Shown here piece after piece: positions 25,067 through 35,895 of a stretch of DNA of 56,766 nt. The notes under the pieces were generated by a model, which saw nothing but the letters and a program-made list of their open reading frames with translations, did no database searches and was not told the origin of the DNA. How positions within the stretch are numbered: position 1 is the first letter of the stretch; each line of letters begins with the position of its first letter. Source of the DNA: Alphaproteobacteria bacterium (lineage in GTDB: Bacteria; Pseudomonadota; Alphaproteobacteria; Rs-D84); the NCBI GenBank assembly GCA_017549445.1, contig JAFYUU010000015.1:1-56766 (forward strand). The letters run 5' to 3'. Position numbers and translations under genes: made by a program.

Positions 25067-27046
25067 ATGACAGAGAAAAATACACATACATACGACGCAT
25101 CAGACATCCAGGTATTAGAAGGACTTGAACCCGTTCGTCTTCGTCCTGGGATGTATATTGGTGGCACTGATGAAAAGGCATGGCATCACCTGCCGATTGA
25201 AATCATGGACAATTCAATTGACGAAGCGGTTGCTGGTTTTGCCAAGAAAATAACGGTTCATTTAATTGATTCCAAAACGATTGAGATTGCCGATGACGGC
25301 CGTGGTATCCCCGTGGACGAGCATCCAAAATACCCTGGCAAATCTGCGTTAGAGGTTATTTTAACCACCCTTCATTCTGGTGGTAAATTTAACAACAACG
25401 TTTATAAAACCAGTGGCGGTCTGCACGGTGTTGGATCTGCGGTTGTAAATGCCCTGTCATCTGAAATGGTGGTTGACATTGCCCGTGACGGCTACAACTG
25501 GCACCAGACCTTTTCTCGTGGTCTGGTGACATCACCAATGCAACGTGGTGAATCCACAAACAGACACGGCACAAAAATCCGCTTTACCATTGACGACCAA
25601 ATATTCGGTGCAAATGCGGTGTTCAAGCCGGTCAAGATTTATCGCATGGCCCGTGCCAAGGCATTTTTATCCCGTGGTGTAAAAATTGAATGGCACTGCA
25701 ACCCAGACCTGCTGACCGAAGACATGGGCATCCCAGCCAGCACGACATTCCACTATCCAAACGGTGTTGCGGACTTTTTGGCAGAAAAAACGGATTCCAA
25801 GCCAAAAATACTGCCCCGTATATTCAGTGGCACTGTTGACTTTCCTGATGATTCTGGCCGTGTTGAATGGGCATTGACATTCTTGACCGATGAAAATGGG
25901 GCCGCATCAGACGATGGATTTTTCTCGTCTTATTGTAATACGATTGCAACCATTGACGGTGGCACACACGAAACCGGATTCAAGTCCGCCATAACCAAGG
26001 GAATCAAGGCATACGGAGACAAGGTAAATAATAAATCTGCCCAAACAATCATCGGCGAAGACGTTTTTGATTCTGTCTGTGCAATTGTATCGGTATTTTA
26101 CAAAACGCCCCAGTTTTTGGGTCAGACCAAGGAAAAATTATCCAACCCCGAAATTGCTCGCTATACAGAAAATGCCCTGCGTGACCCGTGGGAAATGTTT
26201 TTGGCATCTGATCCCAAGACGGCGAACGCCCTGCTGGACTTTGTAATAAATCTAGCAAATGCCCGCATTAAAACGAAACAGGTCAAAGACGTTGCCCGTA
26301 AAACCCCGACCAAGCGAATTCGTATGCCTGCGAAATTGGCGGACTGTTCCAAGCATGGCATCGAAGGCACAGAATTATTCATAGTCGAAGGGGAATCTGC
26401 AGGCGGAACCGCAAAACAGGCCCGTGATCGTGCAACCCAGGCAATTATGCCCCTTCGTGGCAAGGTTCTAAACGTTATCTCTAATTCTGACGAACGATTT
26501 GGTGCCAACAAAGAATTAAATGAACTGATTGACATTATTGGTGCAGGCACAGCCCGTGACTGGAACGAAGACAAATTGCGTTATGAAAAAATCATTGTCA
26601 TGACCGATGCTGACGTTGACGGCAGTCACATTGCATCTCTACTGATGGCATTTTTCTATCAATTCATGCCCCAGTTGATTTATGGTGGCCACCTGTATTT
26701 ATCCTGTCCACCATTGTATAAATTGACCTGTGGGACCGAATCGATATACGTTGACACAGACGAAGAACTGGAAAACTTAAAGGCGACAAAATATAAAAAT
26801 AAAAAGGTTGAAATTTCTCGATTCAAGGGTCTTGGTGAAATGATGCCGAACCAGTTAAAAGAAACCACCATGTCGCCCAAGACCCGTCGTTTAATCCGTG
26901 TTGACCTGCCCCCACGCACCGAAGAAGGGGCCGAAGACACTGAAAAAACCCGCACAATCGTGTCGGAATTGATGGGTAAAAAACCTGAATTTCGTTTCAA
27001 GTTTATTACCGAACATGCCCAGTTTGTCAAAGACCTGTTTGTGTAA
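25067..27046 (+). CDS. parE: DNA topoisomerase IV subunit B
   Basis: VLEGLEPVRLRPGMYIG, GGLHGVG, VEGESAGG and MTDADVDG motifs. 659 aa, alphaproteobacterial ParE style. Confidence 0.85.
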   Translation: MTEKNTHTYDASDIQVLEGLEPVRLRPGMYIGGTDEKAWHHLPIEIMDNSIDEAVAGFAKKITVHLIDSKTIEIADDGRGIPVDEHPKYPGKSALEVILTTLHSGGKFNNNVYKTSGGLHGVGSAVVNALSSEMVVDIARDGYNWHQTFSRGLVTSPMQRGESTNRHGTKIRFTIDDQIFGANAVFKPVKIYRMARAKAFLSRGVKIEWHCNPDLLTEDMGIPASTTFHYPNGVADFLAEKTDSKPKILPRIFSGTVDFPDDSGRVEWALTFLTDENGAASDDGFFSSYCNTIATIDGGTHETGFKSAITKGIKAYGDKVNNKSAQTIIGEDVFDSVCAIVSVFYKTPQFLGQTKEKLSNPEIARYTENALRDPWEMFLASDPKTANALLDFVINLANARIKTKQVKDVARKTPTKRIRMPAKLADCSKHGIEGTELFIVEGESAGGTAKQARDRATQAIMPLRGKVLNVISNSDERFGANKELNELIDIIGAGTARDWNEDKLRYEKIIVMTDADVDGSHIASLLMAFFYQFMPQLIYGGHLYLSCPPLYKLTCGTESIYVDTDEELENLKATKYKNKKVEISRFKGLGEMMPNQLKETTMSPKTRRLIRVDLPPRTEEGAEDTEKTRTIVSELMGKKPEFRFKFITEHAQFVKDLFV

Positions 27047-29828: not shown

Positions 29829-32177
29829 TTATTGGATACCGACTTGGAATTCATCGCCCCAACCGGCAACCGTCTGGCCACCAATCGTGCATTGGATATC
29901 CTCAAAACCATTTTCTACTTGCTTCTTTTTCATAACGTGACTGGTGATTAAACCGCCGGCCGTCCCCAATACTACACCTGCCGTCATATCAGATGCTAAA
30001 CGGGCACGGTTAAATTCGCCGTCTTCGTCACGCCATACATTGCGTTCAAATCCACCTATCAATCCATCCAATGCATCAACAGATTTTTTGACCCGCACAA
30101 ATCCAGCAGACGTTTTACGTTCCACATTAACAGCATTTTCCAACTTGGCGAAATTAATATTGAACTGCGTTTCAACACGAACACTGCTGACACAATATGC
30201 CTCGATATTTGTAATCAAAGACATAATCTGCGAATTGCCTGCAAATTCGATTTTCCATTCCGCAATCTGTGTCATTTTAACCGAAGGACAATCCCACTTT
30301 GGCCCCTGTTCCTGTTTGCACTGTCCCGGATTATAGGCCAACAAAGTATTCCACAGATTATCAAAACCTGCCTGTGTTCTGGAATCGGCCTTGCACAATG
30401 CTTCGATTGCGACAATCAAATCAATAATATCACTATTGCCCACACAATCCTTTTTCCACTTATTCATACGTGCAATCAGTGTTGCATCACAGTTAAACGT
30501 TGGCTGTGTTGGAACAACATTTGTCTCTACCTTGCAATCCCATTTGCCGTTTTCCTTGACGAACTTACCCCCATTTACACAGAAACACGTCTTGGAATCT
30601 GGTTGCCACACGGTCTGTTTCTTTGGCAAAGCACAACATGCATTGCACATTTCGGCCTTGTCACCATGTTCATGACAACGTTGACACTTACCAGGTGTCA
30701 CAACTGGCGGATTATCTGGTTTTGTTGCCTTACCTGGGCAAACACACGTCAACACATCCACCATAACCTGCAATTGCAGTTGACTTTTTGGATTATAATA
30801 CGTCTCAGCATTCATAACAACCTGACCACCTGCATCATTACAGAGCCCGGTCCAGGCCAAAACTTCTTCTTCTTCGAACTTGATACAGTCCCTATCATTA
30901 CAACTGACACGTGAAATTTCTGTTCCCTGTGCCATACCATCACACGTCTGTGCAATTCCCGGCATTGGTCCCGGTTGCCCTGGCAACACTGGTGCGATAT
31001 TTCCATCACACACGCACTGCATCAATGTTCCCACCTTGTCAGAATTTTGCTCGTTTGGATTTTTCAGACCTGTCTTGGTATCAACAGTTCCACCTGCCTC
31101 TCGACAATTTTCTGTATAACCTATAATCTCATCTGGACTAAATCCTTTTTCAGCCCAGTTCCAGTGACCAATCACCCCTGCATCTTTTCCGGCACAAATT
31201 GTCTTTTTATCAAACAGACCTGAACTATCTTCTTCCCTACCACCACTTGAAGCATCTGCTATACAAATGCACTGATATAAAGTCCCTTTGTCAGAACCTG
31301 CACCCCCTGGTATTGTGGCACCATATCTTACCTCAAACCGCCCACCATACTTTTTACAATCTTCCGCATAACCCGACTCATCAAACAAGGCATCTTTTGT
31401 GACACTATCCGGCAACCAGGCCCAATGTCCAACATCGCCAACCCCTTTGCCGACACAAATATTGTCACCCCATTCCCCTGAATACACAGGTTTATCGTCC
31501 TTCTGTGGTTTGTCTTTGCACACCCCACATACACATTGATTGTTTTCCTTCTTGGTGCATTCAAACACCTGACTGTCTGCACAGCTTGCCGAACTCAACA
31601 CCTTGTCCGAACTGCCATCTGGGCACACAACTGGGTTTGGGTCAGGATTAGGTTTCACCCCACCCTTGGACACACACTTGCCTGAATCAAAATCGTATTC
31701 CAATCCCTCAATACATTTATAGTAATAACATATCGCCTGCCCTGTCACATAAGATGTCGTATTATTTCCACTGCTTTGACCCGCTTTATATTCCACCCCA
31801 TTGGCGACCCACACTTTTTCCAATCCCGCACCATTTTTATCTGCAATCGGCCCATAATCTGGTTTATCATTACAATATGTTGGAGAATACGTATCCCAAT
31901 GATCATCATATGCCCAATTACCACGATTACAAACCTTGAACGCACTAAAATCAGCAGTTCTTACAATAGCCCCTTTATCACAGTATCCTTTTTCACAAAT
32001 ATAACAACTACTTGCACCGTCCACATTACTACTCAACGTTTCGGCATTTATTCGGTCATTTCCCCGTGATGTTGTGCACGCCACTGGCACACAGCCCTCA
32101 TTTTTCGCCAACGCATCCACCGGCACTGCCATAACACCGAACAAAATCAAAGACATACAAACGATAATCTTTTTCAT
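29829..32177 (-). CDS. Large secreted Cys-rich modular protein
   Basis: Signal peptide, many CxC motifs, internal repeats and a C-terminal Gly-rich hydrophobic segment. Start moved to MKKIIV. Confidence 0.8.
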   Translation of the reverse strand: MKKIIVCMSLILFGVMAVPVDALAKNEGCVPVACTTSRGNDRINAETLSSNVDGASSCYICEKGYCDKGAIVRTADFSAFKVCNRGNWAYDDHWDTYSPTYCNDKPDYGPIADKNGAGLEKVWVANGVEYKAGQSSGNNTTSYVTGQAICYYYKCIEGLEYDFDSGKCVSKGGVKPNPDPNPVVCPDGSSDKVLSSASCADSQVFECTKKENNQCVCGVCKDKPQKDDKPVYSGEWGDNICVGKGVGDVGHWAWLPDSVTKDALFDESGYAEDCKKYGGRFEVRYGATIPGGAGSDKGTLYQCICIADASSGGREEDSSGLFDKKTICAGKDAGVIGHWNWAEKGFSPDEIIGYTENCREAGGTVDTKTGLKNPNEQNSDKVGTLMQCVCDGNIAPVLPGQPGPMPGIAQTCDGMAQGTEISRVSCNDRDCIKFEEEEVLAWTGLCNDAGGQVVMNAETYYNPKSQLQLQVMVDVLTCVCPGKATKPDNPPVVTPGKCQRCHEHGDKAEMCNACCALPKKQTVWQPDSKTCFCVNGGKFVKENGKWDCKVETNVVPTQPTFNCDATLIARMNKWKKDCVGNSDIIDLIVAIEALCKADSRTQAGFDNLWNTLLAYNPGQCKQEQGPKWDCPSVKMTQIAEWKIEFAGNSQIMSLITNIEAYCVSSVRVETQFNINFAKLENAVNVERKTSAGFVRVKKSVDALDGLIGGFERNVWRDEDGEFNRARLASDMTAGVVLGTAGGLITSHVMKKKQVENGFEDIQCTIGGQTVAGWGDEFQVGIQ

Positions 32178-32249
32178 TGAAATTCTCCCTTTTCCCAAAG
32201 TATCATTGCCTATATTTTACCATAAATTGCCCATCAATCCAAATGAAAA

Positions 32250-32265
32250 ACCGGCATTTGCCGGT
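32250..32265 (-). terminator. Terminator after dnaA
   Basis: ACCGGCA-TT-TGCCGGT with an adjacent A run. Confidence 0.55.
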
Positions 32266-32272
32266 GATATTA

Positions 32273-33568
32273 TTATCTGCATTCTGCAATCAACTGATTG
32301 ATTTGTGCGGTCAAAACCAAATCTGTTGCCTTTTGTTTTTCGATTTGTTTAATCGCATACAGCACTGTTGCATGATCACGATTTCCAACATATGTCCCAA
32401 TTTCTGACAAAGACAAACCTGTTGCTTCCTTCAATACCACCATCATTGTCTGACGTGCCAACACCAAATTACGACTGCGACCTGCCCCACAAACCGATTC
32501 GTATGACACACCCATTTTTTCACACATTGCCTTGACCATTGCCAATGGTGTTTTTGCCTTTTGCAGTGTATCTGCCAACAAACGTGTTGCAACATCCATA
32601 TTTACCGCTTCGCCCATCAGTTCTGCATATGTCTGAATTTTTGTTGCAACCCCTGCGACCAAGTGTCCATCATTTGCGATACGTCCTGCCAACTGTTCTG
32701 CAACATCAATTGCAACACCTGCACGACGCAACAGCACTGTTTTCACATGTGTATTTGGCACAACCACATCTGCAACCAACCCTGATGCCAACAGCGACTG
32801 ACCACGTCTGTCAAAACCATTCAGGTTATTTGGTGCAACACTTGCGGTCAGCACAACATTTTTACCACATGCACGCAAATCCATAACCAACTGCAAAAAT
32901 TCGTCCATTGTCGCCTTTTTGCCTGCCAATGCCTGAACATCGTCCAAGATAAATGTATCACAATTACGGCAATAGTCCTTGAATGCGAACACGGTGCGAT
33001 CATGCAAACTGCGTGTAAATTCTGCAACGAACTGGCCACCTGTCATCATGATAACACGTCCTGCTGATGCATCTTTGATGCAATTTGCCAACAGTGTTTT
33101 ACCACAACCTGCCGTCCCATGGATATACAATGGTGAAAAAGCAACCGCCCCACTTGCCACCTTTTTGCATGCAGACACAACAAACACATTATCATCGCAA
33201 GACACAAATTTATCGAACGCATTCATATCTGCTGATTTTTCTGTTGCAACTGCGACAGGGCTGAATGTCTGGGTATTATTATCATTTGCGACTGGTGCAA
33301 CTGTGCGAATGCTGCGACCCGCATTTGCGACTGCAACCTTGATATCCAACCCAAAGTGATTTGCCACACCACGCAAAACATTACCAAATGTCGCATTGAT
33401 ATAGTTTGCCGAGAACTGATTCTGTGCCCAGCAGTTCAATACACCATTTTCAATTTCCAAATTCAGAGGTTCAATCCAAGAAGAAAAACAAACGCTGTCA
33501 ATTTTTTCGGCAATAGCCCCCTTGATTGTTTCCAGGTTGACTGTATTTTGTGTTGCCACTGCCTGCAT
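32273..33568 (-). CDS. dnaA: Chromosomal replication initiator DnaA (divergent AAA+ motifs)
   Basis: Domain I WIEPL, Walker A GTAGCGKT, Walker B FILDDVQ, and domain IV ARQ..M..LSLSEIG...RDHATVLYA. Confidence 0.9.
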   Translation of the reverse strand: MQAVATQNTVNLETIKGAIAEKIDSVCFSSWIEPLNLEIENGVLNCWAQNQFSANYINATFGNVLRGVANHFGLDIKVAVANAGRSIRTVAPVANDNNTQTFSPVAVATEKSADMNAFDKFVSCDDNVFVVSACKKVASGAVAFSPLYIHGTAGCGKTLLANCIKDASAGRVIMMTGGQFVAEFTRSLHDRTVFAFKDYCRNCDTFILDDVQALAGKKATMDEFLQLVMDLRACGKNVVLTASVAPNNLNGFDRRGQSLLASGLVADVVVPNTHVKTVLLRRAGVAIDVAEQLAGRIANDGHLVAGVATKIQTYAELMGEAVNMDVATRLLADTLQKAKTPLAMVKAMCEKMGVSYESVCGAGRSRNLVLARQTMMVVLKEATGLSLSEIGTYVGNRDHATVLYAIKQIEKQKATDLVLTAQINQLIAECR

Positions 33569-33901
33569 TCTATTTCTCCTTTCCTTCCCGTTTTTGACTG
33601 ATGTTTTTACATCTGTCGTTTTCGTTTTTTCTCGACCCGCCAGAGTGTAAAAGCCACCTGCCCATAAACGCTAAATTTTTCCTGTTTTCTGCGACTTCCT
33701 TTCAACATCGCCATGAAAAAATTTAGTGTTTATGTTTGCCCTACTTAAACCCTCTCGCTTTTATTTTTTTATCGATATTTCTACCGTTTTGGATACGACA
33801 ATAATGTAGAATATAAAAAATGATTTACAACCGAAATAAAATCCAAAAAGGCCATTTATTTTTTTGACAACGATTCGTTTTTTTGCCCGTTTTCTGGGCT
33901 T

Positions 33902-33922
33902 TGTATAGACAGTGTATAGACA
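33902..33922. repeat. Direct repeat TGTATAGACA x2, 11-bp period, in the dprA-dnaA intergenic region
   Basis: Copies at 33902-33911 and 33913-33922. Confidence 0.7.
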
Positions 33923-33931
33923 ACTATTTTT

Positions 33932-34993: not shown

Positions 34994-35027
34994 AATTAAA
35001 AATCCCCCATCTGGGGGACTTTTAATT
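34994..35027 (-). terminator. Terminator
   Basis: AATTAAAAATCCCCCA-TC-TGGGGGACTTTTAATT. Confidence 0.7.
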
Positions 35028-35895
35028 ATTTCATATCACGCAACAGATATTCATAGTCATATTTTGTGCAACCTTCTGGTTTATCTGCCCCTGTTTTTTC
35101 GACTTCTTCGCAGGCCTGTTTCAGTGCTTGCAGTTCTGCCTTTATCTCGTTATATCTGGCGGAATTATCTTTTTTCAACGCCAAGATTTGGGAACGCAGC
35201 AATTCATTTTCCGACAGATTTTCATTTTTCTGTCCCATGACCTTGCCACCAATCAACTTATTTCCGAACAGTTCCATTGCCCCAACGCCGACACCTGCAC
35301 CACCGACAACGCCACCAATTGTTCCCCATGTGCGGACATTTTTCTTGGCATCCAATATGCGTTGACGCAGTGTATCTTCATTTGCCCAGTCACCACATGT
35401 GATACCCTGGCCCATTACAAAGTATTTTGCAGGCACATCTGCGACACTAATTTTCGGATTAGATGATTTAACCTCTACCTTGACCCAGCAAACGTTATTT
35501 TCTGGTTTTTCCACATCTTCAACCATAGACGCATGACTGCCCGTATTACTATAACGTGAAGCCCACACAAACGTTGCCCCAACCCCAATATTATTTTGAA
35601 TACATGCGGCCCGTTCTTTTTCACGCATATCTTTTTTATCTTCTTCATTCTGAACAGGTGGCACAACGGTCACATCATCATTTTTATCTGCCACAGGCAC
35701 CTTTGCATTATTATCTTCATACTTTACGCTTGGTTTATTTACCTGTGCAACTGTTTCGATATACTTTCTGGACGCAGTTGCCCGTTCTGTGCCCATCTGT
35801 TGTGCCATTGCACGTCTGCTTTGTCCAGCAGGCACAGCCGCCACAACTGGACTGATCAACATCAAAACAGCCATAAAAGATATGATTTTTTTCAT
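35026..35895 (-). CDS. Hypothetical secreted protein with glycine-zipper-like segment
   Basis: Signal peptide, Cys-containing core, WGTIGGVVGGAGVGVGAMELFG segment and a C-terminal coiled coil. Confidence 0.8.
   Translation of the reverse strand: MKKIISFMAVLMLISPVVAAVPAGQSRRAMAQQMGTERATASRKYIETVAQVNKPSVKYEDNNAKVPVADKNDDVTVVPPVQNEEDKKDMREKERAACIQNNIGVGATFVWASRYSNTGSHASMVEDVEKPENNVCWVKVEVKSSNPKISVADVPAKYFVMGQGITCGDWANEDTLRQRILDAKKNVRTWGTIGGVVGGAGVGVGAMELFGNKLIGGKVMGQKNENLSENELLRSQILALKKDNSARYNEIKAELQALKQACEEVEKTGADKPEGCTKYDYEYLLRDMK

Follow-up and report, generated by a model that had tools for sequence, protein, structure and literature searches.

The window analyzed here is a 56,766-nucleotide stretch of DNA from an alphaproteobacterial assembly of order Rs-D84, and its minus strand carries, at 32273..33568, a dnaA open reading frame (ORF) of 431 amino acids plus stop, whose product is a full four-domain DnaA. 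In this protein, and throughout the Enterousia family to which it belongs, the arginine finger (E. coli R285) and the sensor 2 arginine (E. coli R334) are replaced. The replacements are fixed in a single-copy gene that is under purifying selection, in genomes in which no Hda was found, and their combination is rare elsewhere; what they mean biochemically, and that initiation is controlled by other means, we infer from sequence comparison. On balance, we favor the reading that the protein is the sole working initiator of its host, a tiny-genome Candidatus Enterousia, one that would still bind nucleotide but would be without ATP sensing and hydrolysis, and the bacteria of this family probably start replication without the textbook DnaA-ATP on/off switch. 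What appears to be new is a family-wide, selected DnaA without the ATP-sensing and hydrolysis residues in an Hda-less lineage; the protein class itself is known.

The host assembly comprises 763 kb in 19 contigs and is 64% complete, with dnaA located on the 160-kb contig C15. Its GenBank relatives are titled Candidatus Enterousia sp., Ca. Enterousia scatequi, or 'Alphaproteobacteria bacterium' and are from ruminant and horse guts; these bacteria are uncultured. Members of order Rs-D84 have been described as reduced-genome gut bacteria that are probably partner-dependent (PMC12306168), and the paper describing Enterousia and Rs-D84 makes no mention of DnaA. The parts of the gene on which the argument rests are as follows.

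32273..33568, minus strand: dnaA coding sequence, the sole DnaA homolog of the assembly
33329..33535, minus strand: domain I (DnaA_N, residues 12-80), with the F46 equivalent invariant in the family
33224..33319, minus strand: domain II linker (residues 84-115), with a predicted local distance difference test score (pLDDT) below 50, presumably flexible
32564..33223, minus strand: domain III, the AAA+ module (residues 116-335)
33095..33118, minus strand: Walker A GTAGCGKT, in which K157 corresponds to E. coli K178
33035..33037, minus strand: G178, at the E. coli E204 position
32939..32956, minus strand: Walker B TFILDD
32840..32842, minus strand: sensor 1 position, Ser243 (E. coli D269)
32777..32818, minus strand: box VII GFDRRGQSLLASGL, which holds L259, R254, and R255
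32807-32809, minus strand: R254 codon, at the D280 position, a family-specific gain
32792-32794, minus strand: L259 codon, at the arginine finger (R285) position
32663..32665, minus strand: His302, at the sensor 2 position (E. coli R334), within an invariant G-H motif
32276..32548, minus strand: domain IV, the Bac_DnaA_C helix-turn-helix, with conserved box-contact residues

The three Pfam domains of DnaA, PF11638 (DnaA_N), PF00308 (Bac_DnaA), and PF08299 (Bac_DnaA_C), were all detected above their cutoffs. The TIGR00362 DnaA model aligned with the protein end to end (positions 3-435 of 437) at 244.5 bits, short of the equivalog cutoff of 343.9, and scores of 234-304 bits were obtained in all ~240 Enterousia-family genomes. 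Proteome-wide fast evolution was considered as the cause of this low score and rejected: DprA, PlsY, SufB, GatA, GatB, and MiaB, encoded in the same window, all pass their equivalog cutoffs, indicating that the divergence is specific to DnaA. The AlphaFold2 (AF2) monomer model (mean pLDDT 70) shows the expected domain order and a helix at residues 254-261 in box VII, and its best Foldseek matches are the DnaA structures 8BTG, 1L8Q, 3R8F, and 2HCB, followed by Hda (3BOS, 3SC3). Tested as an Hda, the protein scored 40.3 bits with TIGR03420, against a cutoff of 194.8. Homologs carry the GenBank names 'AAA family ATPase' or 'DnaA/Hda family protein', and because annotation pipelines assign the former name, Enterousia-group genomes appear to lack dnaA.

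Residues were placed using phmmer against the solved B. subtilis (8BTG) and T. maritima (2Z4R) DnaA structures and using MAFFT with E. coli DnaA (NC_000913). All of these alignments concur in placing L259 at R285, H302 at R334, and S243 at D269. Pairwise alignment with Aquifex DnaA (2HCB) concurs on the finger and shows a three-residue shift around sensor 2; in any register, this one included, no Arg is found within six residues of the sensor 2 position. An initial annotation of this DNA had proposed an R285-to-Leu and an R334-to-His replacement, and both are borne out by independent alignments, among them a multiple sequence alignment with DnaA orthologs in which no Arg is placed at either position.

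The replacements are a property of the family. In 33 sequences from 14 genera, the finger position is hydrophobic without exception (19 Leu, 10 Val, 3 Ile, and 1 Met), and the sensor 2 position is His in 33/33. The same combination of Leu, Val, Ile, or Met at the finger with His at sensor 2 was found in 46/46 GenBank Enterousia-group loci and in 120 database homologs, among which G301-H302 is invariant. Loss of E204 is a further change beyond those first listed, with Gly178 in the window protein and Ala, Gly, or Ser in 31/33 family sequences. The D280 position is Arg in 29/33, and 28/33 retain the second Walker B Asp, which four genera have exchanged for Gly, Ser, or Asn. Sensor 1 (D269) is Ser here and Asn in the clade consensus, as in other Alphaproteobacteria. 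The D269-to-Ser substitution reported initially is therefore real, but the argument built on it, that sensor 1 is lacking and tight nucleotide binding lost, fails because Asn, Ser, Thr, and Asp are all normal there; judged by the alignments, Ser is an ordinary change at a position that stays polar, and a normal AAA+ sensor 1 residue.

The positions required for other DnaA functions are retained. The Walker A glycines are kept, and the equivalents of K178 and of the first Walker B Asp (D235) are present in 33/33 family sequences. Among the oligomer-interface and single-stranded DNA (ssDNA) residues, AID-1 R227 is kept in 31/33, K243 in 32/33, and AID-2 L290 in 31/33, and the R281 equivalent (R255 here) is Arg in 28 sequences, His in three, and Lys in two. 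The F46 equivalent of domain I is invariant (33/33), as are the DnaA-box readers R399, R407, H434, and T436, with D433 and Q408 each kept in 30/33; the family has Ala for T435 and Tyr for H439, as do other Rs-D84 DnaAs and some from elsewhere in the Alphaproteobacteria. In E. coli, the residues lost in the family serve ATP sensing in trans and ATP hydrolysis, and those kept bind nucleotide, form the protomer interface, make ssDNA and oligomer contacts, recruit DnaB, and recognize boxes (PMC5742627). The initial statement that Walker A, Walker B, and domain IV are retained stands, with GTAGCGKT, TFILDD, and the domain IV contact residues all present, and so does the description of the protein as a non-canonical DnaA, the finger and sensor 2 being changed family-wide. 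The suggestion that it is nucleotide-uncoupled goes too far: invariance of the P-loop Lys and the first Walker B Asp indicates that nucleotide binding is still selected, and what would be lost instead is gamma-phosphate sensing and hydrolysis.

One DnaA each, free of internal stops, was found in 258/261 genomes of order Rs-D84, many of these 258 being 95-100% complete, and the single-contig complete genomes G209 and G243 contain exactly one DnaA each. Searches with TIGR00362, TIGR03420, and a genuine Rs-D84 Hda protein as queries revealed neither a second dnaA nor an hda in the family (own assembly, 30 relatives, 261 order genomes, and two single-contig genomes, among them a complete congeneric one); RuvB and a RarA-like protein account for the weak extra AAA+ matches of the own genome. 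The ratio of nonsynonymous to synonymous substitution rates (dN/dS) of dnaA between species is 0.09-0.20, and comparison with a near-identical strain shows 15 synonymous and 6 non-synonymous codon differences; dnaA is under purifying selection and not decaying. In a maximum-likelihood tree, the Enterousia family is a monophyletic group (100/100) within the DnaAs, with a stem of 1.34 substitutions/site and short internal branches, a shape that records a burst of change and then conservation. These data bear directly on the explanation that the case is an artifact or a product of decay, i.e., a misalignment, an incipient pseudogene, or a paralog whose canonical counterpart is missing from an incomplete bin. 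The fragmentary host assembly (only 64% complete, 19 contigs) and the TIGR00362 score below cutoff speak for it, and against it stand identical substitutions in every alignment method and in >200 sequences, the single DnaA of nearly all order genomes, two of them single-contig, the absence of internal stops, and the low dN/dS. Decay, which had been named at the outset as a possible undoing of the claim, is not seen in any of the 258 genomes, and the explanation as a whole is effectively refuted, so that we give it next to no weight.

Hda was not found in any Enterousia-family genome tested, complete ones included. Elsewhere in the order, genuine Hda was found in eight genomes of one other Rs-D84 family, as ORFs of 226-255 amino acids scoring at most 491 bits with the Rs-D84 Hda query, and a weak Hda-like ORF of 222 amino acids was found in one genome of a further (sixth) family. 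For comparison, 25 non-Enterousia Rs-D84 DnaAs from five families were aligned. The DnaAs examined from Hda-containing genomes all retain R285 and R334, and within Rs-D84, replacement of the sensor 2 Arg is confined to lineages without Hda, where it arose at least four times (His in the Enterousia family, Lys in G024/G028, Lys in G037, and Gly in G040), a pattern that fits relaxed selection on the hydrolysis machinery after loss of regulatory inactivation of DnaA (RIDA). The G037 DnaA has Ile at the finger besides its Lys at sensor 2.

Among non-Enterousia Rs-D84 DnaAs (L003, L010, L012, L024, L058, and L060), the switch residues erode piecemeal. The finger is Cys in family f5, Glu in two f2 genomes, Phe in f4, and Ile in G037, and sensor 2 is Lys (f2 and G037) or Gly (G040); in the f4 genome G021, the Walker B Asp pair is replaced by Glu-His, and its DnaA sits on a very long branch. 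Rs-D84 offers a comparative series of how the switch decays during genome reduction.

The prevalence of such proteins outside the order was examined in two samples. Of 301 evenly sampled alphaproteobacterial species, 292 had a DnaA above cutoff, typically at ~555 bits. Among the 42 lowest-scoring or otherwise notable non-Rs-D84 alphaproteobacterial DnaAs, R334 is kept in 42/42 and R285 in 39/42; the finger exceptions, Leu in G459 (L152), Leu in G474 (L158), and His in G328 (L162), came from a set of 30 divergent proteins, have otherwise canonical scores of 413-447 bits, and keep sensor 2, showing that natural loss of the finger alone is not unique to Rs-D84. When 1.84 billion representative proteins were searched, the Enterousia-type DnaAs formed an isolated group of seven full-length clusters, followed by a score drop to generic DnaA. 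R334 is kept in 133 of the 140 full-length best matches, the seven exceptions all being Enterousia-type; R285 is missing from the same seven and from three non-Enterousia representatives, which have Cys or Leu there. By residue comparison, the combined loss of finger, sensor 2, and E204 is characteristic of the Enterousia family within everything sampled, and no report of a natural DnaA without both arginines was found in the open-access full-text literature.

In the mechanism we propose, Walker A and the first Walker B Asp would retain nucleotide binding, domain IV would retain DnaA-box reading, and the equivalents of R227, K243, R281, and L290 would retain head-to-tail self-assembly, which would no longer be gated by the gamma-phosphate of the neighboring protomer. 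With a hydrophobic finger, His at sensor 2, and E204 lost, intrinsic and stimulated ATP hydrolysis as well as ATP-specific cooperative assembly are expected to be lost or greatly weakened. If bound ATP is not hydrolyzed, there would be no ATP/ADP cycle, and with neither an ATP switch nor Hda (and hence no RIDA), the frequency of initiation would have to be set by other means; candidates are the amount of DnaA, through transcription or proteolysis, the methylation state, and the origin architecture. The more far-reaching version, a 'switchless' DnaA throughout a family of more than 240 species-level genomes (Candidatus Enterousia and relatives), in which nucleotide would serve as a structural cofactor, assembly would proceed without ATP sensing, and the protein would never be inactivated by hydrolysis, we regard as a serious possibility and put forward tentatively.

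Several points weigh against a sole initiator devoid of ATP sensing and hydrolysis. Strict conservation of the P-loop indicates that nucleotide still matters, so that the protein may have stayed dependent on ATP to some degree. Contact with phosphate could still be made by the sensor 2 His, and the conserved R254-R255 pair, located where the box VII helix begins, could be a relocated finger. The AF2 monomer model, of moderate confidence, supports the fold and is silent on the protomer interface. The remaining points concern the origin. GC skew is uniformly negative over the 160 kb of contig C15, where dnaA lies >126 kb from any skew switch; in the complete relative G209, dnaA lies at 347.5 kb, with about 150-190 kb between it and the skew switch; and a search with the E. 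coli and Caulobacter consensus sequences detected clustered TTATCCACA or TGATCCACA-like DnaA boxes neither near the G209 switch nor in own-genome intergenic DNA.

The arginine pair in box VII suggests the main alternative, in which R254/R255 supply the trans Arg, His302 acts as a weaker sensor 2, and ATP-gated assembly is kept. The change of D280 to Arg, in 29/33 family sequences, is a gain specific to the family; R281 is kept in the family, and most other Rs-D84 families with R285 lack R281; and an RR or RH pair at 280-281 occurs in nearly all of the 46 GenBank loci. From helix geometry, R281 would lie one helical turn from position 285 on the same face, and the invariant Walker A and first Walker B Asp place nucleotide binding under selection. 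In E. coli, however, R281 stabilizes oligomers and represses the intrinsic ATPase, without a part in ATP sensing (PMC5742627). The DnaAs of G024, G028, and G037 have no Arg at 281 or 285, indicating that an Arg on the box VII helix is not obligatory in the order. The joint disappearance of Hda, E204, and the sensor 2 Arg, to which four genera add that of the second Walker B Asp, speaks for loss of hydrolysis and not for rewiring. We consider a relocated finger unlikely.

With respect to the origin, an oriC adjoining dnaA was rejected as a candidate, the skew of contig C15 being uniformly negative over its 160 kb. In G209, skew and gene orientation switch together at ~157-178 kb, beside gidB-parA; in G243, the skew is too weak to locate a switch. 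The three DnaA-box clusters of the own genome lie in coding DNA. The gidB-parA intergenic region of G209 (L115 7839-8064, ~157.8-158.1 kb) contains the parS-like palindromes TTTCACATGAAA and TTTCATATGAAA and repeated ATTGAATATA, and is probably a partition locus beside the origin. Contigs C1, C4, C5, C8, C18, and C19 of the own assembly (~300 kb) have near-zero GC skew, compared with |skew| of ~0.2-0.3 in the others. Contamination was rejected as the cause, GC content being uniform and G209 also having a wide low-skew region; the low-skew regions look like a feature of the chromosome.

DnaA-independent replication occurs in some cyanobacteria and insect endosymbionts. A corresponding explanation for the Enterousia family is that DnaA is no longer the initiator and has become a DnaA-box-binding transcription factor or chromosome organizer, replication being independent of it; a DNA-binding regulator had also been raised as an alternative in the initial annotation. 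The distance of dnaA from the skew switch, the missing box cluster near that switch, and the conservation of domain IV, stronger than that of any other part, with many invariant columns and the highest pLDDT, would fit this explanation. It is disfavored by the retention of features needed only for initiation, namely F46 (the DnaB/DiaA patch), K243, R227, L290, R281, and a complete AAA+ fold. Furthermore, alphaproteobacterial oriC frequently does not adjoin dnaA, the box search was limited to the E. coli and Caulobacter consensus sequences, and no candidate for an alternative initiator turned up, although no systematic search for one was made. Because origin DnaA boxes were not found, the explanation stays alive at low probability, and we regard it as improbable.

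If a sole initiator without ATP sensing and hydrolysis is the correct reading, one lead on timing may be provided by a GANTC-bearing element upstream of dnaA, together with a CcrM-type methyltransferase encoded in the genome. The features flanking the coding sequence are as follows.

33576..33580, minus strand: Shine-Dalgarno AGGAG, 7 nt 5' of the ATG
33865..33880, minus strand: conserved element AAACGAATCGTTGTCA, with GANTC (CcrM-type) in a palindrome beside TTGTCA, ~300 nt 5' of the ATG
33910-33931, minus strand: tandem direct repeat TGTCTATACA CTGTCTATACA, past the dprA stop and before the dnaA upstream element
32250..32265, minus strand: terminator-like hairpin then a T-run, directly past the dnaA stop codon

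The element AAACGAATCGTTGTCA occurs once in the own genome, and its shared form, AAAAAACGAATCGTTGTCAAAAAA, is present in 19/19 dnaA upstream regions of the same genus (L013-L030 and L072), 180-430 nt upstream of the ATG; it may be a methylation-sensitive promoter or an operator. A full-length CcrM-type N6-adenine methyltransferase is encoded on own contig C10:13210-14340 (+), scoring 495 bits with NF050803, for which the strict cutoff is 830, and GANTC is under-represented in the own genome (1975 observed versus ~2871 expected). GGAG-type Shine-Dalgarno sites of dnaA are also kept in relatives.

In most relatives, and not in this window, the element is followed by an inverted repeat, AAATGTTAAA...TTTAACATTT, and then by GGTTGCAAA. 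Words related to the tandem repeat, GTATATACA/CAGTGTATA, recur in 13-14 of 19 relatives. The gene is flanked downstream by a 789-amino-acid cysteine-rich secreted protein (29829-32198, minus strand), and upstream by dprA and then a 289-amino-acid secreted protein (35026-35895, minus strand). The classical rpmH-dnaA-dnaN-recF-gyrB neighborhood is absent, and a ParE/GyrB-type gene is located at 25067-27046 (+).

The DnaA-ATP/DnaA-ADP cycle is regarded as the core, universal among bacteria, of how replication is controlled. An open debate (Leonard et al. 2019, PMC6727663) concerns ATP-DnaA, which may be required mechanically to open the origin or may serve timing only, and a natural DnaA without finger, sensor 2 Arg, and E204 in an Hda-less lineage makes that debate testable with a natural protein and origin. 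If the 'switchless' reading is true, these bacteria would be the natural counterpart of the engineered DnaA(R285A)/oriC-allADP cell, and the DnaA-ATP/ADP cycle would be a dispensable timing device and not part of origin opening.

Comparison with known systems places the protein closest to canonical DnaA (TIGR00362; E. coli P03004; 8BTG, 2Z4R, 1L8Q, 2HCB, and 3R8F), with which it shares the four domains, the Walker motifs, the interface and ssDNA residues, the box-reading residues, the single copy, and the orthologous placement. It differs in having R285 replaced by Leu, Val, Ile, or Met, R334 by His, E204 by a small residue, and D280 by Arg, in scoring 244 bits where ~555 is typical of Alphaproteobacteria, and in adjoining neither dnaN nor oriC. 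With Hda/HdaA it has the DnaA-type AAA+ fold in common, and the TIGR03420 match is weak; Hda is ~230 amino acids long and is without domains I and IV, whereas the Enterousia DnaA has 431 amino acids and all four domains. Natural DnaAs without the finger (G459, G474, G328, and the three representatives) resemble the Enterousia family in that the box VII finger is replaced; those outside the family keep R334 and E204 or an acidic equivalent, whereas Enterousia has lost all three.

The nearest functional parallels are laboratory alleles. In E. coli, ATP-specific assembly and intrinsic ATPase depend on R285; hydrolysis and RIDA-dependent inactivation depend on R334, which initiation can do without (PMC5742627). 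E. coli DnaA(R334A), altered at the same position as the Enterousia protein, initiates, yet cannot be switched off by RIDA (PMC5742627), and DnaA(R285A), unable to form ATP-specific complexes, supports viability on the synthetic oriC-allADP, in which the low-affinity sites do not discriminate between ATP and ADP, with mistimed initiation (PMC6727663). Caulobacter DnaA(R357A) serves in the literature as the ATPase-defective, hyperactive allele (PMC3193534). These E. coli and Caulobacter alleles are single-site laboratory mutants that are deleterious or lethal on a wild-type origin, whereas in the Enterousia family the two replacements go along with loss of E204 and of Hda, and are naturally fixed under purifying selection.

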